DNA of 64,000 nt. Origin: a virus (taxonomy: Duplodnaviria > Caudoviricetes). Both the position numbers and the translations under genes were made by a program. Where the stretch lies: the IMG/VR virus record IMGVR_UViG_3300021091_000011; one strand, given 5' to 3'. Of the stretch, positions 3,557 through 64,000 are shown one piece after another (positions within the stretch are counted from its first letter, which is position 1; each line of letters opens with the position of its first letter). The notes below the pieces were generated by a model. It searched no databases and was not told where the DNA came from. It worked only from the letters and a program-made list of their open reading frames with translations.

Positions 3557-3644
3557 TGGAATTACCCTCGGGCATTTTTTGGGTGCGGTTTCAATACGCG
3601 ATCTGCGCGATAGCGCAGATCACTTGAAAGTTTTTCGAGCGGTT

Positions 3645-10257: not shown

Positions 10258-10364
10258 CTTCAGACTCCCTATTGGTTGTTACACCCGTTTGTCATGCCGT
10301 TATTGGCGGGACTAGCATCGGGCAAGTAGATATACGCGAAGGGGATTCAGGTCACCCCCCCTAC

Positions 10365-27570: not shown

Positions 27571-27660
27571 ATGCCTAGCAACACCGTCAGACTGATTCTC
27601 GGCGATAGCCTTGTCAAACTCAAAGATTTCTTAATCCGGCTATACCAATCTAACGCTTAG
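27571..27660 (+). pseudogene. Truncated copy of the MTase 5' end
   Basis: MPSNTVRLILGDSLVKLKD is identical to the 29110 start, then diverges at 27626. Confidence 0.85.
27632..27645 (+). promoter_or_regulatory. Representative of the TAA-NNN-SSCTATM motif (putative late promoter)
   Basis: Also at 16358-16371 (minus), 26342-26355, 52009-52022 and 57912-57925, with variants at 18897 and 27064. All lie 28-54 nt upstream of a start. Confidence 0.55.
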
Positions 27661-48200: not shown

Positions 48201-51200
48201 TGGTGTCGGCCCCGCGCGCCAACGTGATTTCTTGCTTGTGCAGACCGGACAATCGCCTATTGGAATCACGGGCATTCAGTCGATTGGCTCGGTGAGTGCT
48301 GACTCGGTTGAACCCCCTCGATTCGTCACGAACACGCAACGCGGCGACTTGCATAGGTACACGGCTCAGAATCTCTTTGGGCACAAAGGCGGCGGCACGA
48401 CGGGCCTTCGCATTACCGAAGTCGGCTTCGCACGTCTATTCGACTTTTCGGATGTCGCAGGCATCGTACTCGATGACGGCTTGGGCGCAGGCAACGGTGG
48501 TCTGGACGCGCTGATTAATCTTGGCGTATCGCCAGGCAACGTGCTCGTCATCAACGTCTATAACCCAAGTCCGTTGGCCGTAAACGCCTACTTGGGCAGC
48601 GTGGTGATACCGAGCACGGTTTTGGCGGCGGTGATTTACTACAAGCCCGCTGTCGGTGTGGCCGTATCGACAAATCTCACGCCTCCGGGCTGGACGCTGC
48701 TGAACTCGACGCAGTTGCAAATCAACGCCGTGGCGTCCGTCTTGAGCACGCTTGGCTTGGTTTCGGGCCAAGCCTACGACTTCACGCTTACAGTTGATAC
48801 CTACGTCGATACGACGACGAGCAATCTGACGAGCGGTGCGTTGGCCGTCGGCTCCGCATTAGGTTCGACCTCCTGTTCGATTCGTGTGAATCGACTTACT
48901 TTCGACGAGCGCGTGTCGTTTGCCTCGGCTTTGCCGCGAAACACGAACCCCGCGAACGGCGACGGCTCAATCGAAATGGGCCTCGCGCTCAATGTTTTCG
49001 AGAGTCCGGTCGGCGCGGGCGCGGTAATCTCGACGGTCAACAACGCCTCCGAAATCAACGGCGGGCTTTATCTGACTTTTCTAGCACGCACTTACGGCGT
49101 CGGCACTTTCACGGCGGCGACATTGCCCGCAACCGAAATCGGTTCCGTGCGCGCGATGGCGTGGGAAGGTCACGGCAATACGCCGATCACGGCGACGAAT
49201 CTGGTCGTATCTGCGGTGCCCTCGTCCGAACGTGATGCCGCTGGCGTCATTTGCGACGGCTCCGGCGTCATTCTCGATGCGGTCGCGCCCTACGCGACCG
49301 AGAACGTGACGTGGTTGCAAACGCTGGCCGTCGCTAACGGTGCAGTAGCGAACGTCGAATCTGGCGACGTCGCTATCGTCAACGGCGGGCTAATCACGGG
49401 CGCGGTGAAAACAGGCACTTACTTGGTGCGTCACGCGGTCACCGAAACTGCTTTCGGCCTGCGACCGATTAAGAACTCGACGCTGGCGGGCAGCAAAACC
49501 TGTTTCGACCTTCGATTCCCAACCGTCGTGAGCATTTCGGGCGTCCTGAGTCTTACAGTAGGCAACGTGCAGCCTGTTTTGTATTCCCCGACGGGCTGCG
49601 GTTTCCCATCATCCGGCTTCGTCTACGTCATCCGAAATGACGTGTGGGTGACTTGGTCTGCGGGCGTTTACACGCTCAACGCCGAGGCGGTCTACAAACT
49701 CGGCTACTCGGCGGTCGCTTACAACGCTGCGACTAAGACGGCGGTTTTCACGCTGACGGGCTTGAGACTAAAAGCCGATGGTTCACCCATCACGCCGTCT
49801 GAACTCGCGTTGGGCGTTACTGCAAACCTGAAAGTGTCCGGTTTCAAGTATCTGCCCATCGGACGCTTGGCCGATGATTTGCCGGACAATAATCTGGTGG
49901 GCTTCGGTTCGGCTGGCGGCATCGCGGGCGTCACTAACGTCACCATCGGCACGCAGGCGATTGCGGGTGCTCCGGTGGCGTCATTCACTTGGAACACGGC
50001 TTCGGTCCCCGCATTGGTTCAAGACCTCTCGGGCGCGGGTCCGGCTGCGAATCAATTGGCCGTGCGCGTTCCGACGCCGAATGACTCCACGGCGTTCTAT
50101 GCCGACACGAACGCGGTGATTTACGGTCGCGTCGATAACGGCGTGAACCCCGTCACAGGCGTCGCTTCGCATCTGGACCTGACGACGATTGATTGGGACA
50201 CGGTGCATTTCAATCCCGTGTTTGCCCCGACCGTCCTGCAATGCTTATTGCCCGGCGATGAAGTCGCGTTCTCGGACAGCATCAGTCCGCTTGCGAATCC
50301 CGGATTTTCGGCGGTCGCGGGCATCTTCTTAGAGCCTTCGATACCTAAGCCCGTCGGTGACTTGAACAGTCTCGACCCCCATGTGGTCACGGCTTCGCAC
50401 ACGACGCTCGACGTGGGTATCCGCAAGTACGGTGATTTCGTCGCGCTCGGCACGCAAGAAACCGTGCAGTTTGCCATTCGCCGCATTCGTCGCTTCCATG
50501 ACGTGCAAACGAACCTCTCGGCAATCATCGACCCCTTGCGATTCGTCTACGAGACTCGTCGCGGGCCTATCGCCGTCCCTATTGCTACGCCGACTGTTAA
50601 CGTCACTTTCGCGGACGGCACGACGCTCGGCTTTTTTGACGACCCCGATGTGGCCGTAAAGCCAAGTTGCACGCTGCGGGTACTAAACGCTGCGGGTGAT
50701 GTTCTCGATACGGCTGAAATCAGGGCGGTGCTCAGTTCAACATCGTTGCTTTTGCGCGAACCCGGACTAACGCAAGACCTGACCTCTGCTGCGTCCTTCG
50801 AGATTTACCTCGTCGATGCGCCCGTGCCCCATGAGCAATCATGCGCGCAGTTGCTAGACGCACTTGTTGACCCGAATGGCGGCGGCTCGATTGTTTATAA
50901 GCGCACGGTGGACTACTCGACCTACCCCTTCGGAAATGGCGGCTCGGTCATTACTGCGAATGAGTTGCTAGATGCGGGCTTGGCTACGCTCACGTCTAGC
51001 GAGTTGGTGCTTCAAGACGACTATGTGATTGTCGATCCCGCAGGGGCTTTGTTCGCGGCGGGCGAGACGGGCCTATTCCCGAACGGTGACACTTCTGTAT
51101 CGGGACGTGTGCCCTTTGTCGCGGGGCGTCCGTCGAAGTTGGACGACAATCGCGGCTTTTATCGCGTCACGGCGAATCAAACGTCCGGCGATAACAAACT

Positions 51201-52011
51201 TGTGGTCTCGGGCACCACGCAATTCAGCGGCTCGGATGAACTCGGCGGCGACGACGTGATCTACGGCGACGTGGGCGCTGAATACGCGGTGCTGCCGACG
51301 ATTAGCGGGTCATTGGTTTCGCAAGGCCCGACCGAAGGCCAGCAAACTCTTCGCGTCACGGCTTCGGCTGACGGCACGGGTGCTTTCTTAGGTCGTGTTG
51401 GCGACGCGCAGTATCGCTCGCTTGAGCCTTTCGGCTTCACGGTGATTCGGCCTGCCCGCACGGTGTTTTCGTCGAACGAATCCATCGAGACCACGTTGTT
51501 CATGCGCGAACGTATGTTGAGCCTGATTCAATACATGGCTTCGGCTTATGGGCGAGGCGGGACGTATTACGTTTTCCAGCGTGACGATCAAATCGAGAAC
51601 CTGCCTAACCCATCTGACGTACTCGTGGGTCAAGGCGTGTTCACGAACGCCATTGTAGACTTACTTCGCGGTCTGACTAACTACGCGCCGTTTGCGAACA
51701 ACCCAATCTGCCTGTCGGTGCATGACCGAAGGCTTTGGATCAAAGATTTCGCGTTGGATTATGAAAGCCCGAACGGTGTCGCGCCTTTCTATGCGGCTCT
51801 TAGCACGAACGGACTGAATCAGAGGCCCATTTTGACGGATTTCATCGACGATGTGCTTGACAACGTCGATGATTTGCATGGCGCGCGTTACGCTTGGCTT
51901 GAATATCGCACGAATCAGGTAAATGGGACCATCGTGAGCGCGAGTCGTTCGAAAGAAAGAATCAATCAAGTTAGGGTGAAACAGGCGAACGCGATTCGAC
52001 GTAGCCGCTAA
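42280..52011 (+). CDS. Giant (about 3240 aa) putative tail/baseplate structural protein
   Basis: Uninterrupted 9.7-kb ORF, beta-rich G/S/T/V/A composition, no enzyme motifs seen. GGGGGTGAT RBS before ATG 42280. Confidence 0.65.
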   Translation: MSFVISGSGDLSGAVVCVPSIWIRLGDPWTRVCPQPANAVNLFASAAVNNSNSAVTLTPRAVDLYHWVESGVEVRNVGAIKPSGNVIPSGFAVGDQLPDYFLLGLGGVSVDCELVSNNPGGLTPNRAYLNINNGEFYLGAGLILETLQYGLDTVQSLVVGGDNKARVWVNTLRVGLGLVLSDCIYGVLNCRLVISDSDLPLPAGISPTEFYLSLASGLCVFSSVYISGRVLKILGVGVSSNPVPNVRHVVLNANGRGQVPAADSLTLWPSNLAGWSRGPITAVGDRPSAWGVVTENSGELFIVGKRDLLAIVEYDSDLPTQGYGLNRERGYYSLESGALQVRSGVGNEVVDFKCGLVPVGFEAPVGVVSLVGLLRGPFDLSGETFVFALDGVVTSFTLPIGRYTSGQLAVLLNAASGVPNAWFDLAGGLACVANASIEIGWGDARIGFAQGWIVTSGARWNSYNGLAMGLYRQVGEGDLTVRLYGEVDDEILVEKIGESSLVYLGQGFPDALQSGYEPDGFFEIVGSNGLISQPLSGRPTAGVFTSSWGVGLLLDCVERNRFSWVERFETGSISVDNGVDQITLDGLGVISLTLEVQEPNLPWLPQEYVLVGNTALFSSRIGADLLSGGVGESVSGVFTDVTIADFTVANVNVGDLLVTSDNLVYRIISVAAGALGLYPSDSFGLVGWQVLDTEPVGLAVYDPALIADRQFLQLPTWDGGDPFAIRVITPLSGATANLSKPYAKSLRYGAVDAGNSALDLLVRGVSMGALSSQMQMPAFVLSDPHYTTSTAGGFYFSLRVPTAVIVITSAFTVPSPPLGVIEVGLFGSGISGQVRVASNLVTAYADLLVYYDQEFLPAGVIVNAEGDIATGALNIPTAYAGESLFLVEKYTSDSVTVSPVPGTAFFQTPIEPRQYVEATYYPTNSGGVNKTGDLIVEFMPISIRLEEATRINARLYSFNPSGLAYDSASEPMIWVGAEMQNYSGNLTATVNGALSQIAFTYDVPITSKVQITYSVLNAPLGTASQSYQVTQAPVWQPPFWLNAGQSVFVLEGDRTATVAPDHLIGVGGKYVAYVQGVTLLPSGDTQVEIYPAPVREVGSRSPGVDQGLVITDRNVTDVDFIQVVPNAFLGAGVGASLIQFYGDARSIIAPRHLIDLDGVPYLVQNVQLTSDGRKTVAYLQIPLQRDVAEGSVVKCSFRPIYQNQPIDFTISGTQITGTSFTAILFSSDSSIPGKVLVPNTQYVVENGALKFQTQFQTPLQPNERLYASYTKSKVISPTMIDDALVVPKYRATYLAITQPSDANGLLGGVLKGKYFYLDAESFTLKIQPIADYLPIVLLDAARRPENPDDTATPTPFPQGGAVTVQKQAENARNAYWDALNLDAGGRVFVTLFNNAVTPFEQVLETIDGRVIGDRDGKLRLYVGPESVTPIAGGVYALTSHLYPRVVWRDLLEAWSPNTSGWFFMPDDFIYDPRSITLGVNPGSLNGYPPSGPDLDFFIDLQREYQRNDVDDVLMTSFKRNVTLANTLLPVITFKGRFESAWQPNAFSRLYPEQTRYFTRLLPGLEAQIDANTGEVIDAGFYSAGRLLPVAGTQPGTTVNKVVKTRNTVIGQISNPVLGELKNVSDITANDRGPRARVWAYYPNGNAALDAALALATPTVGRATLVLTPQTINDFVIDQITGFPDTSLLVTNGGANPDVNSGDAELSTPEFASGDQILLGNPDGTVRTVYLPASGLGAAENPVFVDDIQAGCVVFLKDLNNSALSGAQIFMSDPISGGGISFDPTQGDTIFTPTSQAAIAPNLVSDPVSLADAAKLIETNGDYRIQNDLKVRRRTGQILDASLPVVEDIWGLPIQDWAGQNPPLPGSCIEGTADIINADSEPARLPALFGGTRDDSGDNQIPFLALGNTEIRLLQQASRLFDGLFLDSAAPVQAVYPDEIAVSDGVIYGAVTGGLEPATLYTATANFTPVFVAGSGVGPARQRDFLLVQTGQSPIGITGIQSIGSVSADSVEPPRFVTNTQRGDLHRYTAQNLFGHKGGGTTGLRITEVGFARLFDFSDVAGIVLDDGLGAGNGGLDALINLGVSPGNVLVINVYNPSPLAVNAYLGSVVIPSTVLAAVIYYKPAVGVAVSTNLTPPGWTLLNSTQLQINAVASVLSTLGLVSGQAYDFTLTVDTYVDTTTSNLTSGALAVGSALGSTSCSIRVNRLTFDERVSFASALPRNTNPANGDGSIEMGLALNVFESPVGAGAVISTVNNASEINGGLYLTFLARTYGVGTFTAATLPATEIGSVRAMAWEGHGNTPITATNLVVSAVPSSERDAAGVICDGSGVILDAVAPYATENVTWLQTLAVANGAVANVESGDVAIVNGGLITGAVKTGTYLVRHAVTETAFGLRPIKNSTLAGSKTCFDLRFPTVVSISGVLSLTVGNVQPVLYSPTGCGFPSSGFVYVIRNDVWVTWSAGVYTLNAEAVYKLGYSAVAYNAATKTAVFTLTGLRLKADGSPITPSELALGVTANLKVSGFKYLPIGRLADDLPDNNLVGFGSAGGIAGVTNVTIGTQAIAGAPVASFTWNTASVPALVQDLSGAGPAANQLAVRVPTPNDSTAFYADTNAVIYGRVDNGVNPVTGVASHLDLTTIDWDTVHFNPVFAPTVLQCLLPGDEVAFSDSISPLANPGFSAVAGIFLEPSIPKPVGDLNSLDPHVVTASHTTLDVGIRKYGDFVALGTQETVQFAIRRIRRFHDVQTNLSAIIDPLRFVYETRRGPIAVPIATPTVNVTFADGTTLGFFDDPDVAVKPSCTLRVLNAAGDVLDTAEIRAVLSSTSLLLREPGLTQDLTSAASFEIYLVDAPVPHEQSCAQLLDALVDPNGGGSIVYKRTVDYSTYPFGNGGSVITANELLDAGLATLTSSELVLQDDYVIVDPAGALFAAGETGLFPNGDTSVSGRVPFVAGRPSKLDDNRGFYRVTANQTSGDNKLVVSGTTQFSGSDELGGDDVIYGDVGAEYAVLPTISGSLVSQGPTEGQQTLRVTASADGTGAFLGRVGDAQYRSLEPFGFTVIRPARTVFSSNESIETTLFMRERMLSLIQYMASAYGRGGTYYVFQRDDQIENLPNPSDVLVGQGVFTNAIVDLLRGLTNYAPFANNPICLSVHDRRLWIKDFALDYESPNGVAPFYAALSTNGLNQRPILTDFIDDVLDNVDDLHGARYAWLEYRTNQVNGTIVSASRSKERINQVRVKQANAIRRSR

Positions 52012-52059: not shown

Positions 52060-55000
52060 ATGCCTGAAAGTTTTGGGAACGGCGTATCTCGCACTCTGAG
52101 TGCGCTAAATCGTCAGTTTCAAGCGGTCACTTGGCAGGCTAACAAGCCTCCGCTGGACTCCGAACTCAACCTGATGGCGCAAGTCGAGTGGGAGCGACTT
52201 GGCAATCTCGTTCGCTCGCAGACGCATAGCGGGTTTTTCATTGACCCCATGCAAGCGACGGCTGATTTCGTCACCAGCGCCGATTACTCGAACTTCTTTC
52301 GACTCGGCAACGTCCCCATTGGCTTTCAAGCCCCCGCAATGTGGGCTAACGTCAACGGTTGGGTTATTCCTGTCACGGGCGTTGCTTACAATGGCGTCAC
52401 CAATCAGGTGAATCTCTGGCCCCCTCCGGCGAGCGATGCCCGAATCGACTTCGTGTTCTTGGAAGCCTGGCTTACTTTGGTCGCGCCGAATCCGAGCACG
52501 GCGAATAAGCCTTCGGCCTCCACGATTTACAAGTACGGCAACACGCAATACGGCGGCACGAACGTCGCTGACGACATCGAAGATCCCGCGATTGGCTTTG
52601 AGACGACCGAGCGCGTGCAATTGCAGTATCGCATTCGCGTATTCGGCCAAGGCACGGGCTTGGGCAATAGCGTTGCGCTGAACGTCTATCCCGATGGTCT
52701 TGATGACCCTTCCGTGAAGGCTCAGGGCACCGCCGCTGCTCCTTTGCCTGCGTACTCGTGGGCGAATATGCGTGACGTGCTCGGCGATGCGGGCTTGTGG
52801 CGCGCAGGCGATGGTGACCCCGAAAACGCTTTGGGCACGCTCGACGGCTACGTTTACGCGATCCCGATTTGCGCGGTCTTTCGTCGCAATACCAGCCCTT
52901 TTATCGCGCAACAGCCTGCGGGTAACGCAAATCAAAACGGCGCTTTCGACCGCAACCCATACTCGGCACCCATTACAGACCCCGCTGAAGCCGTCCGCAC
53001 GTTCACTTCAGTCACGTTGACTTCGAGCCTGTCTGCTACGGCTTCGGGCGTGGTGAGCGTAACGAGCTTGGCGAATTCCGGCTTGGACAACCCCGATTTG
53101 TATTCGGGCGGCTCGGTTTTCTACCTGCTCGACGGCGAGGTTGTAGAAATCAGCGGCGTCGGCGCAGGCACGATCACGATTGCGTCGCGTGGGCGTTTGG
53201 GTACTCAGGCCGTCCCGCATGACGCGGCGACCGCCCTACGGTTCTATTGCTTCCGCGCAGACGGCTTGTTCTCAGATCAGATTGCGGCGAGTGACATTCT
53301 TGACCTTCGCCGTTCGATTACGCTTGGCGAGTGGGACTACAACCAAATCCTGCTGCACAATCTCGGGCAGTTGTTCGCCAACAGGCTGCGGTCTAGTTAC
53401 AAGCAGTCCGGCGCGGCTGATACCGAGGGCACGGTCGTCCCCGAGGTTTCATACCTGCCTACCACGAGCCTTTCGCCTGTGCCGAATCAAACCGAACAGG
53501 TGGATTCGCCCGATGGGATTCGTGAGGTGTTCTCGGACGCCGTGGTGATTCAAGACAATGTGACCGTCATGCTTTTGCCTGACTCAAGCGGTGGGCCGGG
53601 CGCTCCGGTCGCGGTGCCTGATTTCACGTCGGGTGCGCCGACTTGGGAAACGGCTGCGGATTTCCAGCCGAACGGTTGGCAACCTTCGGGCGAGGGCATT
53701 CAGAACGGCACGGTCATCAATCTTTTCATCGGCGGTGCTTCGGGCAACGACGGTGCGCGCAAGTCCATGGGCGGTGTGCGAGCCGTTCGTTTCGCTACGC
53801 CCAAAGAAATGTGGCTCCAAGGCGCGGAGAGCAAGACGCCGTTCAAGTTGCGCTTCGTTGGTTCTACGACGGCGTCAAATGACGGCTTGTTCTGCGAGCC
53901 CCCGGTCACGGGCGAATTGGTTGGCGAACATCCTGGCCCGATGTACCCGCTTCCTCAGTTGAACTTCGAGTATCCGTTCATCGTTCTCGGTGGCGTGGTC
54001 GAAACGTCACTTCGCAATACGTCGGCAACCGTCGTGAGCGCGGCGACTACGGGTGACTACGCCGAGGTGCAATTCCCTGGTCTGAATTTCACGGCGGGCG
54101 GCGCATGGGTGAATTCGACTGATCCGCTTAATCCTGCTTTGGTCACCAATCCGATTCTTTACGGCAAGCGCACGCTCTACGATATGATTACGAAGGGCGG
54201 CACGGATATCACGGGCCGTTCATCTGAACTCTATCTGGTCCTGTCCGGCGATACGACGAACTCCGAAAACTGCGGTGTGTTCCGCGTCATCGGCGCGGGT
54301 GATGTTGCTTCCCAATACACTTCGGTTACGGGCACGGCAGTAAACTCGCTCGTCGTAGAAGGCGTGCAAGCGGGATGGACGGATTTCGTTGACGCGGCCA
54401 ATCTGACCGCCGAAGTACGTTCGCAATACTCGAATACCGAGGACGGCCCGAACGCTTCCGTGGGCAACGCTGCGGCGGCAGTTGTCGTAATGACCGATCT
54501 CGCGGGCACGTTGGGCGGTGTTTCTAACCCATGGCGTGCTGCTACGCTTGGCGCAAACGCCATGACGTTCCCAAATGCGAGCGCGGCGATTCTCGACACG
54601 AGCCTGATTTATGGCTCTGGACGTGGCGCAATGCCCCGCGTACCGGACACAATTGACCGCTTCGCCGTCGTCAACCCCATTTCTTCAACCTACTTGCTTC
54701 GTCGCGCGGTGGGCACGATTGACCCCGCTGCGGGCTCTGCTGACGTGCCCACGAACGAGATTTACTATCCCGCTCAGGGCGTGCAAACGTGGTCGGGACT
54801 TTCAGACCATGGCCTCAACGCTCCCGAAGGTCAATCGCTCCCGCTCGGCAATGGGCGTGGCGCTTTGTCGGAGCAGTTGCGTGAGGGCGAACTTTTCGCC
54901 GATGCGGGTTCTAAGACGCTCGTGATTCGGCCTTACCGCAAGGTCAACCTGTCGGTGAATCTGCGTGATGTGAACGTGGACGGCGGCGGCACGCTTGTAC

Positions 55001-57369
55001 CGACGACTTATGCTGCGGGCGCAGGCGCAGGCAATTCGGTTGACGATGCGGGCATCTTCGACGCGGGCTTGAAAAAGGGTTACAGCCTGCCCCCCGAGTA
55101 TATGCCTCGATTCGGGCGGCAGGATATCCCCGTCTACAAATACGCGGCGACGGACGTTATCGCGGCGCTGCCCTATTACTTCGGCGTCAATCACCTGTTC
55201 GCTGATTCGGTCACGAACACCGACGCCGTGTTTAATCTCATCGGTGGCACGGATAACGGTGGCGCTGCGGACGTCACGTCTATCTTGTTTCAGACGAGCG
55301 TAGCTTCGGGCTTGGACTATGGCGAGTACGGCCCGATTGTGGGCGGCAACAACGCCTATCAGTCGCGGCTCTACACCGATATCAACGTCCGCGCTTCGGA
55401 CTTGCCTCCGGGCTTGAAGGGCATTCAGTTGCCCCCATTCTTGGGCATCGCACGCATTTACGGCGTGTACGATGCCCGCGAATGGGCGGGCTCTGGTGCG
55501 TGGCAGGCTGATCGCGTGACGCCGGAAACGGGCGGCACGCCTCCCAAGAACTTGATCCGCACGGATGCCGATAAGCAGACGTTGTTCATTGTTCAAGGCG
55601 GCGCAATCGACGTTACGCTGAACGAAAACGATCACACTTACGTCATCCCCGAAAACCTGATCGACATTCGGCTCTCGGGCTCTTTCGTCGCGGGCGAGAC
55701 GTTTGACGATCTGGATTACATTGTCGAGTGCGAAGTGTTTGGCTTCGCACGAGGCTTCATCAACCTCAATAACTACGTCCTAGCCCGAAAGCACAACGGC
55801 GCAGGAGCCGCGCCTTCTGGACTCGCGCAGGATATCGGCATGGTCTTGCCTTTGCCCTTGCCTGCGAATAGTTGCTATGCGGCTTACCATCGCACCGTCT
55901 ATCAAGGCGACCCATACATGACGCGGGGCGCAGCCGCTCAGGTCGTTTCTGACTATGAGCCGCGCTTCGGACAAATCTCCGTCGCCAACGCCTATCAACT
56001 CGTCACCGCGATTCAACAGTTCGACGCTAACGGCGATCAAGTGCCGGAAATCCCGAACGCGCGTGGGCTTGAGATTCTGGCCGCTGCTGATTTTTATACG
56101 ACGCTCGGCACGGGCAAAATCGGCGGCGCTTTGCAATCCGGCACGGCGACTGACATTGGGCATTTAGAGTCCAACGGCACGCGCTTGCCGACATCGGCCA
56201 CCGCCAATCAGTTTCAGCCGCAAGCCCGCACGTTCACCGAAGGCCAGCCCGAATCCGCGCCTCGTGGTTCGCTCGTAATCCGCGTGCTTTTGGCTTCGGC
56301 GGCTTCGGCTAATCAGTCGATCTATTTCTATCAGGGTGCGAAGTATCAATACGCACAATCAAATGCTAGTTTCTCCGGCCTGACGACTTCTGCTACGGCT
56401 GAAGACTTGGCTGACTTTATCAACAGTCAGGTCAATCCTTACGTCCCCGTCAAAGCCTATTGGAATGGCGGTAACGACGTTTTGGTTCAGGCGGTCAATT
56501 CCGGCGTGAGTGATATTAGAATCGACCTGCGGCCTGCGGGTACGAATCGTGACGTCACGGGTTTCGCTCTGATCGCACCTACGGGTTATGCACCTGCATC
56601 GACCTCGCGCTATTTACTCGGCGGTCAGGACATTCCAGTAAACGCGGCGCGTGTAAGCGACGCGCCAACGCCGATTGCAATAACGGGCCTTACGGAACGC
56701 TTGCCTTTGGGCATCCTGCTCAATGACTCGGACTTCATTGGTGAGGACCCCGCGCGCACGGGTTCTTCGATGCTTCACGTCGCGCCTTCGGCGGGTGGGC
56801 CTGCTGGCAACGTCAAGGTGCCCGAAGTGCGCGGTGCCGAATACGACCGCCTAAGCGGACCTGCGGGGCATCTCGGCATGGCCGATGGCGGCGTGTTGCT
56901 TTATACGGCTTGGACGACGGTGACGCCTACGGGTAGCCGACTCTTCCGCGTCTATCGCGGCGGCACGGCTTACGTCATCGGCGGTCAAAATCCGGGTGGT
57001 CCGGTCGATTGGACTTCCGGCAATCTGCCCGACGGCTCCGTGTTGAAAGGCTGTGTGCTCGCAGGTCGAGCCTATCTCGTCCGTAACTACGAAGAATCAG
57101 CCTTCGGCAACGTGACGACGCACGGTGACGAAATCCAAATGGTCATCGTCACTCGCGGCATCGTCGGCGAAAGTTTGAACTGCGAAAACGGCTACGCCCT
57201 TGTCGGACAGATTAGCCCGACGGGTTACGGCGAAGGCTATTCGGCGGCTGACCGATATAGGCTTGAAGGCAAGCCCTTACACGCAGGCACGAGCAAGAAC
57301 GGCCCGAATCCTGTTGTCCCCTTGGCTCCGTATCCTACGGACGACCCGCAACCCTCGACGCCATGCTGA
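52060..57369 (+). CDS. Large (1769 aa) putative tail/baseplate or fibre protein
   Basis: Follows the giant ORF; N-terminal PPLDSELNLM; similar composition. Confidence 0.65.
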   Translation: MPESFGNGVSRTLSALNRQFQAVTWQANKPPLDSELNLMAQVEWERLGNLVRSQTHSGFFIDPMQATADFVTSADYSNFFRLGNVPIGFQAPAMWANVNGWVIPVTGVAYNGVTNQVNLWPPPASDARIDFVFLEAWLTLVAPNPSTANKPSASTIYKYGNTQYGGTNVADDIEDPAIGFETTERVQLQYRIRVFGQGTGLGNSVALNVYPDGLDDPSVKAQGTAAAPLPAYSWANMRDVLGDAGLWRAGDGDPENALGTLDGYVYAIPICAVFRRNTSPFIAQQPAGNANQNGAFDRNPYSAPITDPAEAVRTFTSVTLTSSLSATASGVVSVTSLANSGLDNPDLYSGGSVFYLLDGEVVEISGVGAGTITIASRGRLGTQAVPHDAATALRFYCFRADGLFSDQIAASDILDLRRSITLGEWDYNQILLHNLGQLFANRLRSSYKQSGAADTEGTVVPEVSYLPTTSLSPVPNQTEQVDSPDGIREVFSDAVVIQDNVTVMLLPDSSGGPGAPVAVPDFTSGAPTWETAADFQPNGWQPSGEGIQNGTVINLFIGGASGNDGARKSMGGVRAVRFATPKEMWLQGAESKTPFKLRFVGSTTASNDGLFCEPPVTGELVGEHPGPMYPLPQLNFEYPFIVLGGVVETSLRNTSATVVSAATTGDYAEVQFPGLNFTAGGAWVNSTDPLNPALVTNPILYGKRTLYDMITKGGTDITGRSSELYLVLSGDTTNSENCGVFRVIGAGDVASQYTSVTGTAVNSLVVEGVQAGWTDFVDAANLTAEVRSQYSNTEDGPNASVGNAAAAVVVMTDLAGTLGGVSNPWRAATLGANAMTFPNASAAILDTSLIYGSGRGAMPRVPDTIDRFAVVNPISSTYLLRRAVGTIDPAAGSADVPTNEIYYPAQGVQTWSGLSDHGLNAPEGQSLPLGNGRGALSEQLREGELFADAGSKTLVIRPYRKVNLSVNLRDVNVDGGGTLVPTTYAAGAGAGNSVDDAGIFDAGLKKGYSLPPEYMPRFGRQDIPVYKYAATDVIAALPYYFGVNHLFADSVTNTDAVFNLIGGTDNGGAADVTSILFQTSVASGLDYGEYGPIVGGNNAYQSRLYTDINVRASDLPPGLKGIQLPPFLGIARIYGVYDAREWAGSGAWQADRVTPETGGTPPKNLIRTDADKQTLFIVQGGAIDVTLNENDHTYVIPENLIDIRLSGSFVAGETFDDLDYIVECEVFGFARGFINLNNYVLARKHNGAGAAPSGLAQDIGMVLPLPLPANSCYAAYHRTVYQGDPYMTRGAAAQVVSDYEPRFGQISVANAYQLVTAIQQFDANGDQVPEIPNARGLEILAAADFYTTLGTGKIGGALQSGTATDIGHLESNGTRLPTSATANQFQPQARTFTEGQPESAPRGSLVIRVLLASAASANQSIYFYQGAKYQYAQSNASFSGLTTSATAEDLADFINSQVNPYVPVKAYWNGGNDVLVQAVNSGVSDIRIDLRPAGTNRDVTGFALIAPTGYAPASTSRYLLGGQDIPVNAARVSDAPTPIAITGLTERLPLGILLNDSDFIGEDPARTGSSMLHVAPSAGGPAGNVKVPEVRGAEYDRLSGPAGHLGMADGGVLLYTAWTTVTPTGSRLFRVYRGGTAYVIGGQNPGGPVDWTSGNLPDGSVLKGCVLAGRAYLVRNYEESAFGNVTTHGDEIQMVIVTRGIVGESLNCENGYALVGQISPTGYGEGYSAADRYRLEGKPLHAGTSKNGPNPVVPLAPYPTDDPQPSTPC

Positions 57370-57380
57370 GTTTGTAACCC

Positions 57381-57914
57381 ATGAACAAGCCGTCACCTAT
57401 CCGTGTAGCAAGTCGCTATCTAAACGCCAGCCTCACGCTCGCCTTCGTCGGCAACGTCGGGGCCAAGAGCACTAAGATTCAGGACATTGGCGAAAAGGCC
57501 GCTGATGAACTCAAAGCGTTAGTCGGTGAAGCCGAAGCCGAAGCCTTGATTCGCAACAAGTTGGCTCGGGACAAAGGCTTTTTCTTCCACGTCACGATTA
57601 TTTCACCGCCCGAAGTGAAAGATATCGTGAACCGAATGGCCGCAGATAAAGCCATGAGCAAGTCCAAGGCATCGGACGAGTTCAAGGCCGAAGTCGAAGC
57701 GTTCGGCCTTACGGATAGCGGCTTGAAGTCACTCGGCTTGGGCAAGGCCGAGAAGGGCAGCGACGTGGCTTATTTCGCCGTTCTCGATTGGCCCGACGCT
57801 CAAAAACTGCGCGCCAAGTTCGGCTTGAGTGATTTCGATTTCCACACGACGATTGGTTTTGTTAAGGCCGACGTTCACGGCGTTCGCAAGAATCGATCTA
57901 CTCTGATTCGCTAA
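57381..57914 (+). CDS. 2H phosphoesterase (two HxT motifs)
   Basis: FFHVTIISPPE and DFHTTIGF..DVH; N-terminal IRVASRYL. Confidence 0.8.
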   Translation: MNKPSPIRVASRYLNASLTLAFVGNVGAKSTKIQDIGEKAADELKALVGEAEAEALIRNKLARDKGFFFHVTIISPPEVKDIVNRMAADKAMSKSKASDEFKAEVEAFGLTDSGLKSLGLGKAEKGSDVAYFAVLDWPDAQKLRAKFGLSDFDFHTTIGFVKADVHGVRKNRSTLIR

Positions 57915-57957
57915 CACGGCTATCGCCGTGTGATTGTTACACGACAGGGGACTTTCG

Positions 57958-58542
57958 ATGCGTAAGTTGAGTTCTGCTGATCGTTCGGCCCTGATCAAGT
58001 TGGCTTCCAGTCTTCCGTCTGGTTCGCCCGAGAGAAAGGCGATTCTCGCCGGACTTCAGGGTTCAAGCAAGAAGGCTTCTGGTGATGTTAACATTTCGGG
58101 TAAGCACATCACCGCTGCAGGGTACACCTACACGCCGAACGAGCTTCCGGTCTCGGAGATCAACCCCTCCAAGATCCCCAGTCGAACGGCCCGAGAGTAC
58201 CAAAAGCGACTCCTCGTCGATCTCAAGAGGAAGTTCCCCTACAATGAGATCCGGCTTGACATGTTGGGGTTCATCACAGGCTCCCCCTTCACCTATATCA
58301 AGTTCAACGGTCTCGGGACCCGCCTGGACCTCGGGATGTGGTTCGACCAGAAGCCCCAGGACGTCTGGGTGCTCAGGCTCCACATTTCGTGGGGAAGCCA
58401 CTACGAAAGCGGGAACTACAAGGCCATCGACATTCCTTGGGCTGGCGACCTCGACGCGATCTACGCAAAGGTCAAGAAGGCGTCAGTCACCCTCGTCGAG
58501 TTGGGGCTCTCGAAGATCGAGGAGGCCAAGGCCAGGCCATAA
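57958..58542 (+). CDS. DRSALIKLA-leader protein, unknown cargo
   Basis: MRKLSSADRSALIKLASSLPSGSPERKAILAGL; ATG 57958. Confidence 0.75.
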   Translation: MRKLSSADRSALIKLASSLPSGSPERKAILAGLQGSSKKASGDVNISGKHITAAGYTYTPNELPVSEINPSKIPSRTAREYQKRLLVDLKRKFPYNEIRLDMLGFITGSPFTYIKFNGLGTRLDLGMWFDQKPQDVWVLRLHISWGSHYESGNYKAIDIPWAGDLDAIYAKVKKASVTLVELGLSKIEEAKARP

Positions 58543-58671
58543 CCCAGGAGTACCTGATTGCCCTTCTACGGAATTAGAGCATGAAGCCTCATAAGGTTCC
58601 GTAGCGGATATTGGTGAAAAACCCGATTGTCGGGTCATCCAACGGAAACTCCAGAATGGAACAGGAACACC

Positions 58672-59601
58672 GTGAAAAATAAGTCGATAGTGCTCGTTAC
58701 TCTGACGCTCGCCTGCTCGCATCCGGTCGCCCGCGACGAGCCCGCGCCTCTCCTCAACCCGTCTGCCGCGCCGCCCCCGACGCTGCGGACGCTCAAGATT
58801 ACTTCCGAATGTGCGGACCCCATCTGGATTCAACAGGAGAACCACGCGGGTGCTCCTGCGCTCACGAAACTGACCAAGGGCACGTCAACTTCATTTAGTA
58901 TCCCCGACGAAGGCTTGCCGTCTACGCGCTACTGGGCAAAGACGGGCTGCGACGCCACCGGAAATAGCTGCGCGGTTGGACAGTCCTCGCCGCCTTGCCC
59001 CGCTGCTGGATGCGCTCCTCCGGTGGACAGCAAGTTGGAGGCAACGTGGGGCTGCACGCTGCCAGAGGCGCAAAAGGAGCAATGCGCCAAGACGGATCAA
59101 GGACCACACGTCAAGAATACATGGTGGAACGCGAGTGCCGTTGACGGCTTCACGCTGCCCTTCCTCGTTGCGGTCAGCGGCGCATCCTCAGACGCCTGTG
59201 CGCCTGTCAACTGCGCCATGCTGGACCAGAACAAGTGTCCCGCGTCGGAATCCCTGCCGCCCGCCTACCCAGGTGGGGTGGATCTGCGTGTGCAGGGCGG
59301 TGCGGGGTGCTTCTCGCCATGCACGGCGCTCACCTATCCCGGCTTTGGCGGTAAAGGCATCCAACCGCCGAGCGACCCTCGCGCTGCCGCGTACTGCTGC
59401 CCGACGCCGCCTGTGTCGCCCGCACAATGCTCTAGTGGCCCTGCGGCGACGACGAAATACGTCGAGGCTATCCACAAAATGTGCGCGGACACGACCTACG
59501 GCTATGCCTATGACGACGCGCTAGGTCTGCGTCAATGCGACCCAACAGTTGAACTTCAGCTTATTTTCTGTCCCGGTATTCCGGCAGTAGCGACGCCGTG
59601 A
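58672..59601 (+). CDS. Thaumatin-like (PR-5/GH64-TLP superfamily) lipoprotein
   Basis: Lipobox TLAC; RYWAKTGC, NASAVDGFTLP, GCFSPC, YCC, YGYAYDD and LIFCP, with many Cys. Confidence 0.85.
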   Translation: MKNKSIVLVTLTLACSHPVARDEPAPLLNPSAAPPPTLRTLKITSECADPIWIQQENHAGAPALTKLTKGTSTSFSIPDEGLPSTRYWAKTGCDATGNSCAVGQSSPPCPAAGCAPPVDSKLEATWGCTLPEAQKEQCAKTDQGPHVKNTWWNASAVDGFTLPFLVAVSGASSDACAPVNCAMLDQNKCPASESLPPAYPGGVDLRVQGGAGCFSPCTALTYPGFGGKGIQPPSDPRAAAYCCPTPPVSPAQCSSGPAATTKYVEAIHKMCADTTYGYAYDDALGLRQCDPTVELQLIFCPGIPAVATP

Positions 59602-59750
59602 TGCGCGGCGACGCCGAGGTGTCCGGCAAAGCCAAATGCTTCGGCAACGCCCGCATCGGTGGCACGGCTATTATCCTCGGTGGCGAATGGAACGGAAGCG
59701 AGGGTGAGGTCACTTCAGGTACTTGGCTGGCTCCGGGCGTTCCGGGCTGA
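59601..59750 (+). pseudogene. 49-aa remnant resembling the end of a hexapeptide (LbH) repeat protein
   Basis: MRGDAEVSGKAKCFGNARIGG... carries GDAxVSGxAxxxGNAxI periodicity. Confidence 0.45.
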
Positions 59751-59792
59751 TTCCCTAGTTTTGACGACGCCTAACAAGAAGGTTTGACCCCC

Positions 59793-60335
59793 ATGCGTAA
59801 GTTGAGTTCAAGCGACCGTTCGGCCCTGATTCGGCTTGCTTATGCCCGACCTGATCTTCGTCCCGCTCTTCTGCCCCTCTTGAAGAAGGCGAGTAACTTC
59901 CCCCGCGTCGTGAAGGAAGTCGAAGAGGACTACAAGCGCAAGGCAATAACGGTCAGAGAAAAGAACGAACTACTCGCCGCCATTGAGGACGCGGAGACTG
60001 AAGAACAAGCCATGGGGTTAGTAAGGAACCACCGTAAGGGGCGTGTTGCAAAAGAGGCTTCCGCATCCCCGTCTAACCCGCGCATCGTGCGGTTGCGCGA
60101 TGGGAAGTTCGGCATCGAGTTCCACACCAACCGAGGCGTGTTCGTCTGGACGCAGAACAAGAGTTTCACCCACTCATTCAAACTCGACCGCGAAGATGAC
60201 CGAGATCGTTCTCCTTTGACTTACGATTCACCTACTGCGGCGCAATCGGGTATGAAAGAGGCTCTTTACGAAATCTATCGTTACCGACCAGGTGATGAAG
60301 ACTTCGTGCGTGGGCACGAACCCGTGAAAGTTTAG
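59793..60335 (+). CDS. DRSALIRLA-leader protein, unknown cargo
   Basis: MRKLSSSDRSALIRLA...LLKKAS; internal KEAS. Confidence 0.75.
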   Translation: MRKLSSSDRSALIRLAYARPDLRPALLPLLKKASNFPRVVKEVEEDYKRKAITVREKNELLAAIEDAETEEQAMGLVRNHRKGRVAKEASASPSNPRIVRLRDGKFGIEFHTNRGVFVWTQNKSFTHSFKLDREDDRDRSPLTYDSPTAAQSGMKEALYEIYRYRPGDEDFVRGHEPVKV

Positions 60336-60354
60336 GGGTCTACGCCTGATTCTT

Positions 60355-60777
60355 TCAGTATAAGTCGTCAGGCTCCGGCGTGACCGGAAATCTGACGACC
60401 CAAATCCATTCGACGCCGATGTAGGCCGAGCGCGTCAAACGATGCATTCCGTCCATCACGTCGCCCTCTGCCGATAGTATGATCGGACAGAGCAAGTCCG
60501 CATCGGCCACTCTCTTCAAGTGGCCGATGAACGTATTGAGCGTGATCTCATGCTCCCAATGCCAATTGTCTAACTCCCTAGCGAAGTAGCCGAGCGGCAT
60601 CTTGTACGGCGTCAGGTCTTTCGCTAGACGCCATAGGCGTTCCACGCGCCACGTCTTACCGCCGCTAGAGTAAGTATGCTGATTTATCGCTTCATCAAAT
60701 TGCGGCTCGATGGTGAGGCTTTTACTTTTGGCCTTATCAAGTTTGGCCTTTCCCCGTTTATTACGACGTGCGGACAT
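60355..60777 (-). CDS. ParB/Srx-like domain protein
   Basis: PIILSAEGDVMDGMHRL; start uncertain. Confidence 0.65.
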   Translation of the reverse strand: MSARRNKRGKAKLDKAKSKSLTIEPQFDEAINQHTYSSGGKTWRVERLWRLAKDLTPYKMPLGYFARELDNWHWEHEITLNTFIGHLKRVADADLLCPIILSAEGDVMDGMHRLTRSAYIGVEWIWVVRFPVTPEPDDLY

Positions 60778-60982
60778 TTCAGGCACTTCCCTTCGTCCAT
60801 CTGCAATAGCCCGCAGGCACGATGCCAATAGCAAAGCCGCTCGAAATCAGGGCCGCTTACTTTACCCCGCGAATCTTGCGGGTCAGGACCATAGACCTTT
60901 GCGTGAATCGGAGGCCACAAATCCCCGTTCGCACAAGTTATATCCGCACGATTAGCATCCGGTTTCATTCGCTTCACGTCAC
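60684..60982 (-). CDS. Hypothetical Cys-containing protein
   Basis: GTGA coupling to the polymerase stop; overlaps the ParB-like ORF by about 90 nt. Confidence 0.45.
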
Positions 60983-63900
60983 AACCCCTCGTATCCCGCG
61001 ATGATCTTAAACTCAGCGAATGACGCCTTGAAAGCAAACCCGAGCAAATCGGACCCATGATCGGTCTCAATCACGATTTCGTCTTTGCCCCGATTCATGC
61101 ACTTCGCCACCACCCGCGCCATGATTTCGGCAAGTTCCGGTGTCAGCCTATGCGCCGGAATCGTGTAGACGTGCCGCGATTGCGAAGATATGGGCATCAC
61201 AAAATCAGGCGTGCTCTCAATCGGCGCGGCAACAGGGACCGCTTCGGCCACGGACTTTGCTTCGCCCACGCCGCCGTTCGCCAGATACTCAGCATAGAAC
61301 TTCGGGAATACCCGCTGCCAACGCTCGGACCAAACTTCAGGCTTTGTCTCGCGCGGATTCGTCATCGCTACGAGATTAAACGGCACCGTCCAATCATCGC
61401 CAAACTCGATGTCGTTCTTCAGCGGGATGATCCACCCGAGGTTTTTCACCGTGCGAACCGTCATCAACTCATTGATCGTCACTACTGCTTCTTCGGCCAA
61501 GTCCTCATCGATCTCGAACACGAGTTCGTCGTGAATCGTCACACACATTCTAGCCTTATCCAACCACCCGCGCTCTTTGCACTCGCGGTAAATAAGGCCC
61601 ATCGCAAACTTCATAATGTCTGCGGAACTTCCTTGAACAGGGCCATTGACTGAGTTTCTTTCGGCCTTGGATCGGAACCCGCCGTCCGTGTGGTCAATGT
61701 CGGGCAATGGGTATTTACGGCCATAGGCCGTCGTGACGTACTTTTGCTTGCGCGCGGTCTTGTGCTGCTCTTCCCACCACTTCGCCAAGCCACGGTAGGA
61801 CTTGTCAAACTGCCGCTTAATACGCCAGCCTTCTTCTTTGTCTACGCCAACCGAACGCTGCGCCGCAGACCCACCCCCGCCGTAACACATAGCGAAGTTG
61901 AGGCTATTATGAACTGCAAGCCCATTCGCCGCGTAGAGGTGATCTTCGGAGTCGATATGCAGGTCTAGGCAAAGGGAATCGCCTGCCGGAACGATCAGCA
62001 AGACTTCATTCCCCAAGCGGTCATAGGCTTTGCTCGTGCCACTAATGCGCGCGATTTTGCCCGGATGCCGCATATAAGGTGCGATAAGCGCACCATCACG
62101 CCGCTTGAATCCGACTTTCACATACCATCTGGAATACTTCTTGTTCCACGACGTTGTGATTGTCGCCTCGCCGCCAATAGCACGAATGATCTCCGCGATC
62201 TGCCCCGCGAAAACAAAGTCCTTCGTGCAAATGTTAATGTCACCGCCTGATGACACGGAGCCGTCAGTATCAATCAAGCCGCCAAGATAGTGCGCCATAG
62301 CCGACCTGCCGCCTTGAAGAATCCAACGCGGCACTCGAAGCGTTCTTTTCGTCGACGGGCTACCGTCAACTAACCCGAGCGTCTGCATCCATCGAAGCAC
62401 ATGGCGGCTGCCTAGATAGACGTTCTTTTTTCTGGCGATTGGCTCTAACCCAACGTCCCGACACGCGGCCATGATGATTTCTTGCCACTCGGAGTAGCGG
62501 ACCCCCAACGCATCCGTTTTCTCGACGGACCCATGCGTAATCGTGGCGCACGCCGTACTAGAAGCACCATCCCCCGCGTGCAAGCCGCTGAAATAAGCCG
62601 TCGCCATTGTCGGCGTGTAGGCCATCTCAGGAACTCCTGCGAAAGCCTTGTGACTTAGTGTCTTCGGTTCTTGTTCATCGGCGGCAAGAAACACCGGAGC
62701 ATGAAGCGTGTCGCCTGCTTTTAGACCTTCACGCAGAGATTTTTGCGTGCCGTCTGCCAACACGAACTTGTGCTCTTCAGAGCACGTCAAAACCCCTCTT
62801 CGGCTGACGACGTGGTAAAGGGGTTTGATGCCGCCGTTGTACGTCTCAAGTATTGGCGCAAAACCACCCTTCGGTGTAAGCACCTTTCCGGAATGCGGCT
62901 TGAATTCGTCCACACCACCAAAAGCGAGGTCACCGATGCGGGTGTACCCGCTATCCATTCGGATCAGCGTGTCCGGATGCACGCACTTCGAGTTTTGGCG
63001 TTTTAGCTTGAAGTCGCTCTTTGACGGCGCATCTTCGCCGTAAATCGCCAATGCGGTCAGCGTGTGCAAGTCACCGATCTTGTCTGACCAACAAGACGGG
63101 CAGAAATGCGGAGGGCACGAACCCTTCTCAAAGCGGTGCTCACAACCCGAGCATCGGAAAAACTCATCAACCCACTTCGGCTCGCCCGAAAGATTCGTGA
63201 CGATACGAAGCTCCACGCCCGAGTAGTCGATGGCGAACAGGATTTTGCCCGCCGTCGCTTTCACGCTCGTTCGCATCTTACGAACGCACTCAGGCTTAGA
63301 CTTGTCATACGTCGCCGGAATCGAGTGTAGATTCCACCGCGATTGGCCCGTGAAATCCCCTGATTCAGAAGCGGGAGTTGAAAACCGCCCCGTGTCCGTC
63401 TTGGTAGCGTTGAACCCAACCCACAATCGACCGTCGGGGCTATTTCCAGGTGCTAGGTCATGGTAGACCGGAAACAGGTTAGACGAAAGCCCCTTTGCCA
63501 CTTCACGGAACCGCTTGATTTTGGGCGCAAAGGGCAAGTCGTCGCCCATATCCTCGAAGATACGATTAATCTCATCCTTGCTCGTCTTGACCTGACCTGA
63601 CTTTTCAGTCACGGTCAGCCCCTCGACGCCGAGTTCACGAAGCAAAAGCCCGAGTTCAGTCGGGATCGTCACGTCGTAGGTATTCGGAAACTGCACCGTC
63701 TCGCGCACTTTGGCGTCGGTGAGTGAAGGCACCGACTTCGGCACTTTCACGTCGGGGTCAGGCCCAAGGTCTTTAATGACCTGCTCCCGATGCTCCATGT
63801 ACGACGGCTCCATGCAATCGGCATCGAATGGCGTATTGATTCGATGATGCTGCCCCTGCATGGACTTGAACCAACCGGGCCGCACATCGCGCCCCAAGAT

Positions 63901-64000
63901 GGTTTCAATGCCCGCGTAAAGTTCAGCCAACGAGTCAAACCATTCGCGTTGGCCGAGCTTGATCAACTTGATAATCGTCGCGCGGTCCATTGGTACACGG
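60979..64000 (-). CDS. polA: Family A DNA polymerase with intein; 5' part beyond the right edge
   Basis: TDTGRFS, motif A IDYSGVELRI, spliced motif B RQNSK|SLNFAMCYG, motif C IHDEL. The frame is open to position 64000. Confidence 0.95.
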   Translation of the reverse strand, partial: RVPMDRATIIKLIKLGQREWFDSLAELYAGIETILGRDVRPGWFKSMQGQHHRINTPFDADCMEPSYMEHREQVIKDLGPDPDVKVPKSVPSLTDAKVRETVQFPNTYDVTIPTELGLLLRELGVEGLTVTEKSGQVKTSKDEINRIFEDMGDDLPFAPKIKRFREVAKGLSSNLFPVYHDLAPGNSPDGRLWVGFNATKTDTGRFSTPASESGDFTGQSRWNLHSIPATYDKSKPECVRKMRTSVKATAGKILFAIDYSGVELRIVTNLSGEPKWVDEFFRCSGCEHRFEKGSCPPHFCPSCWSDKIGDLHTLTALAIYGEDAPSKSDFKLKRQNSKCVHPDTLIRMDSGYTRIGDLAFGGVDEFKPHSGKVLTPKGGFAPILETYNGGIKPLYHVVSRRGVLTCSEEHKFVLADGTQKSLREGLKAGDTLHAPVFLAADEQEPKTLSHKAFAGVPEMAYTPTMATAYFSGLHAGDGASSTACATITHGSVEKTDALGVRYSEWQEIIMAACRDVGLEPIARKKNVYLGSRHVLRWMQTLGLVDGSPSTKRTLRVPRWILQGGRSAMAHYLGGLIDTDGSVSSGGDINICTKDFVFAGQIAEIIRAIGGEATITTSWNKKYSRWYVKVGFKRRDGALIAPYMRHPGKIARISGTSKAYDRLGNEVLLIVPAGDSLCLDLHIDSEDHLYAANGLAVHNSLNFAMCYGGGGSAAQRSVGVDKEEGWRIKRQFDKSYRGLAKWWEEQHKTARKQKYVTTAYGRKYPLPDIDHTDGGFRSKAERNSVNGPVQGSSADIMKFAMGLIYRECKERGWLDKARMCVTIHDELVFEIDEDLAEEAVVTINELMTVRTVKNLGWIIPLKNDIEFGDDWTVPFNLVAMTNPRETKPEVWSERWQRVFPKFYAEYLANGGVGEAKSVAEAVPVAAPIESTPDFVMPISSQSRHVYTIPAHRLTPELAEIMARVVAKCMNRGKDEIVIETDHGSDLLGFAFKASFAEFKIIAGYEGL
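61906..62985 (-). mobile_element. Intein (360 aa) with LAGLIDADG endonuclease in Pol A motif B
   Basis: Begins CVHPDT, ends AVHN before S. Blocks FSGLHAGDG and YLGGLIDTDG. Confidence 0.95.

Follow-up and report, generated by a model that had tools for sequence, protein, structure and literature searches.

Thaumatin-like proteins are textbook eukaryotic defence and β-glucan proteins, and to our knowledge those of prokaryotes have barely been studied. Members of the family bind β-1,3-glucans, and those of GH152 hydrolyse them via an acidic REDDD cleft (bioRxiv 10.1101/2024.06.03.597214; PMC3048497). The GH152 proteins are β-1,3(-1,4)-glucanases (bioRxiv 10.1101/2024.06.03.597214), and the PR-5 proteins are antifungal (PMC3048497). 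Here we describe a gene for a thaumatin-like lipoprotein in phage DNA, found in IMG/VR record IMGVR_UViG_3300021091_000011. The window, by which we mean the whole 64,000-nucleotide stretch that was analysed, is part of a ~204-kb jumbo phage from lake water. The finding is real and well supported, and consists of a known kind of protein in an unexpected carrier. What is new is a phage-borne, repeatedly captured clade of thaumatin-like lipoproteins, which apparently circulates among jumbo phages and evolves under purifying selection.

Thaumatin domain and predicted lipoprotein anchor

The open reading frame (ORF) was confirmed as a genuine member of the thaumatin family by hidden Markov model and by fold. 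The Pfam Thaumatin model PF00314, proposed as a check in a first-pass annotation of the window, matches residues 46–301 along its full length (profile positions 2–209 of 209) with E = 1.2e-15 and 58.3 bits, where the cut-off is 27.4. A family-profile sequence search of the Protein Data Bank (PDB) matched Pru av 2, osmotin, NP24, PR-5d and zeamatin, with E-values down to 9e-11. The AlphaFold2 model of the protein has a predicted local distance difference test score (pLDDT) of 80.6 and a predicted template modelling score of 0.78. Its 28 best structure matches in the PDB are all thaumatin-like proteins (E down to 1.8e-14, template modelling (TM) score by target 0.70–0.77, probability 1.00), which bears out the predicted thaumatin fold. 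The identification is far beyond chance.

The first-pass annotation had also credited the protein with a full set of thaumatin motifs, and this stands in part. The family model is matched over its full length, and several motifs are shared with the plant proteins (R-x-W-x-x-T-G-C, V-D-G-[FY] and Y-x-Y-x-x-D-D), as are many putative disulfide Cys, but one REDDD residue is an Asn, and a regular-expression search for the classical PROSITE thaumatin signature found no match in the window protein or in 267 relatives. In the subfamily, the signature loop is replaced by C-x-x-G-Q-S-S-P-P-C-P-x-x-G-C. Long-type thaumatin proteins have 16 conserved Cys forming 8 disulfides (PMC3048497); the window protein has 18 Cys after the lipobox Cys, 15 of which are invariant in the subfamily. 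On its sequence, the protein is placed in a divergent prokaryote/phage subfamily of thaumatins that carries a predicted lipid anchor and is without the classical signature.

An independent gene caller predicted the same 309-residue product in two other assemblies. A longer product is possible from a TTG at 58627; the GTG at 58672 is favoured because homologues in the alignment begin 12–16 residues before the lipobox Cys. We took a positively charged n-region, a hydrophobic core and a lipobox Cys at position 15–35 as the mark of a bacterial lipoprotein. The N-terminus, VKNKSIVLVTLTLA-C15, satisfies the PROSITE-type lipobox rule and has all three, with charges at K2 and K4 followed by IVLVTLTLA-C15. 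This Cys is at least 90% conserved in an alignment of 30 sequences, the lipobox occurs in phage and chromosomal relatives alike, and 83 of the 121 top homologues pass a strict lipobox test, all in agreement with the lipoprotein signal originally read. The Pro linker that was read behind it likewise holds, as residues 16–39 are rich in Pro and Ala and modelled with low confidence (pLDDT 43–70 for residues 1–40). In homologues, the first Cys of the domain follows the lipobox Cys at a distance of 18 to 155 residues (median 34.5).

Relatives in phages and on bacterial chromosomes

Relatives of the protein number 218 at E ≤ 1e-3 in a set of 5.8 billion proteins and 414 in a set of representatives at 50% identity. 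The closest, at 52–82% identity, lie on other large phage-like contigs with unrelated neighbours. One stands among dense small ORFs without Pfam matches, together with genes for HU, helix-turn-helix regulators, GH19 and DUF5661, and another among AcrVA2-like, DUF6011, dCMP deaminase, MazG and SNase genes. Further close relatives are found with an HNH gene, with genes for a peptidoglycan-binding protein and a sigma factor, on a 76-kb contig and on two short contigs. Two more distant relatives from neighbouring clades (45% and 53% identity) are likewise on large phage-like contigs. One of these adjoins a RecA gene and occurs on contigs as long as 202 kb, and the other is on a 189-kb contig that encodes ribosomal protein L12, a sigma-70 region 4 protein and adenylosuccinate synthetase. 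An alignment-based scan of IMG/VR found 12 contigs that encode relatives, from genomes of ~100–430 kb by CheckV-type estimates; a single-sequence scan of IMG/VR with the window protein gave no match.

A maximum-likelihood tree of 95 sequences places the window protein in a clade of 18 rows (starred in the tree). This clade and its 8-row sister make up 26 rows, which come from IMG/VR and metagenomes only and include no species-representative genome; all contexts inspected in this part of the tree are phage-like. The enclosing clade of 43 rows holds only six species-representative bacterial genomes. Among phage copies, the ratio of nonsynonymous to synonymous substitution rates (dN/dS) is 0.13–0.20, and seven of the eight differences listed for a related strain are synonymous. 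These low ratios and mainly synonymous changes indicate that the gene is maintained by selection in phages. The gene has the marks of a phage auxiliary gene, namely homologues on bacterial chromosomes, phage genes on both flanks and purifying selection.

The flanks of the viral relatives (±10 kb) have no genes in common with the window, except for two in one IMG/VR jumbo-phage contig of 202 kb (L067). That contig (features at 1077–3590 and 9992–10909) shares with the window two genes and a RecA-like gene. Its thaumatin-like gene, at 45% identity, lies at a different position and belongs to a different clade, which suggests independent capture. In five thaumatin-bearing IMG/VR records, the giant 1769-residue protein encoded upstream of the thaumatin gene in the window was not found, and the RecA-like protein of the window has weak matches in three; since these records are fragments, they show only that no close kinship was detected. 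Similarity to relatives at the DNA level is confined to 58769–59590, the part that encodes the mature domain. Capture by different phages at different genome positions, together with purifying selection, suggests a real and repeated benefit.

The first-pass annotation had regarded such a gene as not typical, to its knowledge, of phages. This is upheld by the catalogued phages: tblastn found no thaumatin-like protein in 50,697 GenBank phage records, a PHROG search with the window protein returned no family, and BFVD holds no phage protein that matches it. We also found no description of a phage-encoded thaumatin-like protein in the literature, full text included. However, the gene is no one-off: relatives occur in at least 12 contigs of IMG/VR and in many phage-like contigs from metagenomes. 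The carriers include many large uncultured phages, and none was found among cultured ones.

Relatives on bacterial chromosomes reach at most 49% identity and are also lipoproteins. They adjoin TamB/Omp85, SmpB, EF-P and similar genes, and this company of TamB/Omp85 and housekeeping genes places them in diderm bacteria. Carriers with a name come mostly from the Myxococcota (Sorangium, Minicystis, Chondromyces, Byssovorax, Sandaracinaceae and Haliangiales), and there are also poorly classified “deltaproteobacterial” metagenome-assembled genomes. The gene may hint at the hosts of these lake phages, which may be diderm, Myxococcota-like lineages. At E ≤ 1e-37, relatives are fused to ricin-B lectin (all Sorangium-type proteins), CBM6/CBM35, CBM56 and GH16/KRE6 modules; Ig-like domains are also among the fusion partners in the subfamily. 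The fusions to ricin-B, CBM6/35, CBM56 and GH16/KRE6 point to a polysaccharide of the β-1,3/1,6-glucan type. On the chromosomes of Sorangium and other Polyangia (L023–L050), lipoproteins are found in which an N-terminal ricin-B lectin is fused to the thaumatin domain; this architecture is conserved across the genus Sorangium and is apparently unstudied. As read from the sequences, the phage protein is the minimal form of the subfamily, with a putative anchor, a tether and the domain.

The locus and its insertion into a phage gene

The coordinates of the locus are collected in Table 1. A leader of ~35 residues, M-x-K-[IL]-S-S-x-D-R-S-A-L-I-[KR]-L-A..., here called the tag, opens four otherwise different genes (26400, 27103, 57958 and 59793, all +), and two of the four (57958 and 59793) flank the thaumatin gene. 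On paralogous contigs, which are present at genome depth in three lake-water sequencing runs, the leader (58021–58079-like) joins directly to sequence resembling that from 59610 onward, 58079 to 59610. The 49-residue ORF behind the thaumatin gene corresponds, at 77% identity, to the C-terminal part of the first repeat unit (of two) in P0268, an intact 224-residue protein of a related metagenomic phage in which the same leader is followed by β-solenoid repeats (PF18836). From the paralogue junction and the match to P0268, we conclude that 58080–59609 replaced the middle of a tag + β-solenoid gene. Both stumps of the interrupted gene can still be read, and this scar illustrates neatly how a jumbo phage acquires an accessory gene.

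Table 1. Features of the thaumatin locus in window coordinates
Feature	Position	Strand	Remarks
1769-aa structural (tail-fibre-like) gene	52060..57369	+	upstream of thaumatin gene; phage context
Tag-bearing gene	57958..58542	+	leader 57958–58079 fused in frame to 153-aa ORFan domain
Replacement segment, 1.53 kb	58080..59609	+	153-aa ORFan domain, 129-nt spacer and thaumatin gene
AGGA Shine-Dalgarno-like site	58663..58666	+	5 nt before GTG; direct sequence reading
Thaumatin-like lipoprotein gene	58672..59601	+	GTG start, TGA stop at 59599–59601, 309 aa; Pfam, fold, dN/dS
Predicted lipoprotein signal peptide	58672..58716	+	ends in lipobox Cys15, codon 58714–58716
Pro/Ala-rich tether, residues 16–39	58717..58788	+	low-confidence, disordered in model
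Thaumatin domain, residues 40–301	58789..59574	+	18 Cys; cleft R86, E123, N153, D158, D281/D282
49-aa ORF, 3′ stump of tag + β-solenoid gene	59601..59750	+	ATG overlaps thaumatin stop by 1 nt
Next tag-bearing gene	59793..60335	+	repeated 5′ end explains contig breaks at 59774–59817

The 153-residue domain at the left of the replacement segment (58080–58542, +) has no homologue but itself among the 5.8 billion proteins. GC content at third codon positions is 0.54 in the leader, compared to 0.81 (the 153-residue domain, unusually high) and 0.69 inside the segment. Overall GC content was considered as a sign of foreign origin and set aside, as the gene, at 62.8% compared to a window mean of 55.9%, is within the range of other phage genes. 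Of the composition measures, only the third-position contrast at the leader junction is informative.

In the related strain, from a 2025 freshwater run, the 3′ part of the thaumatin gene is present and differs from the window at 11 of 234 aligned bases. Right after the thaumatin stop, this strain and minor variants from two of the lake runs switch to unrelated sequence; both leave the window sequence at 59601–59606 and rejoin it near 59793. It follows that 59601–59792 varies between strains and, since the divergence begins exactly after the stop codon, that the mobile unit ends, on the right, where the gene does.

The three lake-water runs contain 98–99% of the words of 57900–61400. A 20,306-nt contig spans 57000–59817 without a break, both insertion junctions included, and from 59792 onward the sequence is taken up by a contig of 14,487 nt in one run and by contigs of 7,182 nt in the remaining two. 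The contigs break at 59774–59817 because the tag genes share a repeated 5′ end. Depth on either side of the break is equal in each run (17.2/16.5, 25.7/27.3 and about 33/30.9). With contigs of three runs reproducing the locus at equal depth, the concern raised in the first-pass annotation, that the contig might be chimeric here, falls away.

The surroundings are those of a phage. PHROG and Pfam searches identify a family A DNA polymerase, several DNA methyltransferase genes and a RecA/UvsX-like protein in the window, which further encodes an exonuclease V/Dda-like helicase, an SbcC-like protein, CobS/CobT-like proteins and a 2H phosphoesterase. No bacterial housekeeping genes were seen in the window and no tRNA genes were found in it. 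The tag gene neighbouring the thaumatin gene is also present on a contig of 204,357 nt. The 1769-residue protein aligns along 99% of its length, at 43% identity, with a protein of LR745208.1, a 485-kb uncultured phage, and its N-terminus resembles the tail fibre of jumbo phage Tunturi_5 and gp211 of Bacillus phage G. The neighbours of its homologue in LR745208.1 show no synteny with the window.

Several other features of the window were observed. Two giant ORFs on the plus strand, at 42166–52011 (3281 residues) and 52060–57369 (1769 residues), belong to no Pfam or PHROG family, and directly behind them lies the 2H phosphoesterase gene (57381–57914, +; PF22547 2H-SAK, E = 3e-20). The family A DNA polymerase (60979–63990, −) contains a LAGLIDADG-type intein, an insert that starts with Cys and ends with His-Asn-Ser. 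The 847-residue RecA/UvsX-like protein (6388–8931, −; phrog_9666/phrog_97) and the polymerase both match one and the same ORF of LR745208.1, which suggests that the two share an intein-like insert. A motif TAA-N2-CGGCTAT at 27637, 52014 and 57917 (+) precedes the ATGs at 27683, 52060 and 57958 by 41–46 nt, and may be a phage-specific promoter box. A claim to this promoter was rejected for the thaumatin gene, which has only a degenerate CGGATAT at 58605, 67 nt upstream. No RNA run is listed among the sequencing runs that match the locus.

Possible roles and comparison with known systems

We lean towards the explanation that the gene is a functional, horizontally acquired accessory gene, whose product would be an envelope-anchored protein that binds, and possibly cleaves, β-1,3-glucan during infection by the ~204-kb jumbo phage. 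The host Sec pathway would export the product, with lipidation at Cys15, and the Pro-rich tether of ~25 residues would hold it on the envelope of a diderm host, probably at the outer membrane. In the periplasm, the 18 Cys of the thaumatin domain would be oxidised to disulfides. A cleft made up of R86, E123, D158 and D281/D282, with N153 in place of an Asp, would then bind and perhaps slowly cleave β-1,3-linked glucan. As an auxiliary gene, it could give the surface of the infected cell the ability to bind or process β-glucan, for example algal laminarin-type glucan in lake water, and the same activity is apparently supplied to bacteria by the chromosomal relatives.

Several observations weigh against this explanation. 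In the REDDD cleft, R86, D158 and D281/D282 align reliably, but E123 is matched to the cleft Glu by motif only, in a stretch where the HMMER alignment is poor, and the second Asp is N153, an Asn that is conserved throughout the subfamily. With this exchange and the replaced signature loop, the protein may no longer be catalytic, or it may have another ligand than the plant proteins. The window holds no other glycan-utilisation genes, which tells against nutrient capture. A consensus scan around the thaumatin gene found no sigma-70-like promoter and no convincing terminator, and the source sample may be among the three runs in which the locus recurs, so that these are not fully independent.

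The fusions to β-glucan modules do not discriminate among exclusion, exopolysaccharide remodelling, predator protection and nutrient capture, of which the first three had been proposed in the first-pass annotation and the last had not. We infer an order of possible benefits in which auxiliary glucan capture would come first, then exclusion or anti-trapping, then an effect on eukaryotes and last an accessory role in lysis.

Exclusion lipoproteins are encoded by known lytic phages, T5 Llp being an example. An anchored thaumatin-like protein might act in a comparable way on a glycan instead of a protein receptor, by binding or trimming a surface or capsular β-glucan that serves as phage receptor, and so block superinfection and the loss of progeny on debris. 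We regard this role, and the likeness to T5 Llp with it, as unlikely. It would suit a tethered lipoprotein encoded on the same strand directly behind giant tail-fibre-like genes, and independent acquisition by different large phages at different genome positions is what phage-phage competition might produce. However, the protein has no similarity to a known exclusion protein or PHROG family, and chromosomal relatives outside prophages have the same architecture, which is therefore not phage-specific. About equally doubtful is the bolder idea that large uncultured phages repeatedly captured the lipoprotein as a glycan-directed envelope weapon, which would mask or trim a glucan receptor or shield the cell from grazers or fungi. 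If true, this would be the first thaumatin-fold effector in a conflict between phage and host or phage and grazer.

A defence against eukaryotes is much less probable. Here, the protein would attack fungi, oomycetes, algae or grazers at β-glucan-walled or membrane targets, much as PR-5 proteins do, and so either shield the infected cell up to lysis or aid a host that is a predator. Plant PR-5 proteins are antifungal (PMC3048497), and the nearest relatives from named bacteria belong to Myxococcota (Sorangium, Minicystis, Chondromyces, Sandaracinaceae), where lectin fusions are frequent. However, when tethered to the membrane of a jumbo-phage-infected cell the protein would not reach far, there is no sign of its release from the cell, and the benefit to the phage would be indirect. 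A role in lysis or envelope conditioning seems to us a shade more remote still. The protein might act on periplasmic or wall-associated glucans, such as osmoregulated periplasmic glucans, or destabilise the outer membrane late in infection. Like the o-spanins, it combines a lipoprotein signal with a Pro-rich tether, and two relatives have a gene of peptidoglycan-binding or GH19 type at a distance of 3–7 kb, but linkage to lysis genes is inconsistent across contexts and the chromosomal relatives are outside lysis cassettes. With 309 residues and a globular domain it is also much larger than an o-spanin, and it has no adjacent membrane-protein partner, the downstream ORF being a gene stump without a membrane segment. 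Lastly, that the gene is a neutral passenger, captured recently and without a phage role, or an assembly chimera is scarcely credible: its place inside a disrupted phage gene with intact stumps does imply an evolutionarily recent capture, and contigs do break just downstream, but the phage copies are under purifying selection (dN/dS 0.13–0.2) and the related strain has mainly synonymous changes, a single contig spans both junctions with equal depth on both sides in three runs, and the breaks coincide with the repeated tag sequence.

Under the favoured explanation of a glucan-directed accessory protein, as under exclusion, the small single-domain gene is a tractable candidate for a new polysaccharide-directed auxiliary function or a glycan-based exclusion mechanism, and its resemblance to known systems can be followed at several distances.

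Phage envelope lipoproteins such as T5 Llp, Cor and the o-spanins are alike in being phage genes with a lipobox and expression in the host envelope. They have no sequence or fold kinship with the window protein; their small size and their action, on protein receptors or in membrane fusion, set them apart from the protein here, which has a 28-kDa fold of the glycan-binding kind. At 309 globular residues, with no PHROG match and no membrane partner downstream, it does not have the features of an o-spanin or of an exclusion lipoprotein. Among viruses in BFVD, the thaumatin fold is found only in those of eukaryotes (Tupanvirus, Feldmannia species virus, Satyrvirus and closteroviruses), whose proteins match with E-values of 4.5e-13 to 1e-4 and, in contrast to the phage protein, are without a lipobox.

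Within the fold, the closest structural matches are the long-type plant PR-5 proteins (Mal d 2, 3zs3; Pru av 2, 2ahn; NP24, 2i0w; PR-5d, 1aun; osmotin, 1pcv), with Foldseek E-values of 1e-14 to 1e-12 and TM-scores of 0.70–0.77. Identity to these is 20–25%, and the phage domain exceeds theirs by ~60 residues, most of them inserted into the disulfide-rich lobe. The phage protein has 18 Cys compared to 16 in the plant proteins, a replaced signature loop and an Asn at one REDDD position, and it carries a predicted lipoprotein anchor and tether where the plant proteins have a eukaryotic secretion signal. The β-glucanases of GH152, such as Lentinula edodes TLG1 and Bemisia tabaci Bta13961, share with it the thaumatin fold with an acidic cleft (putative in the phage protein), and no other thaumatin branch has been shown to hydrolyse glucan (bioRxiv 10.1101/2024.06.03.597214). 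The phage protein differs in one Asp-to-Asn exchange in the cleft and has no specific sequence kinship with them beyond the family. A solved prokaryotic member, the thaumatin-like protein of Amycolatopsis rifamycinica (7p22), is a more distant fold match (E = 1e-8, TM-score 0.58).

The nearest known architecture is that of the ricin-B + thaumatin lipoproteins of Sorangium and other Polyangia, which belong to the same subfamily at 37–45% identity and have a lipobox and the same replaced signature loop. Their genes are chromosomal and add an N-terminal lectin, whereas the phage protein is the bare anchor, tether and domain.

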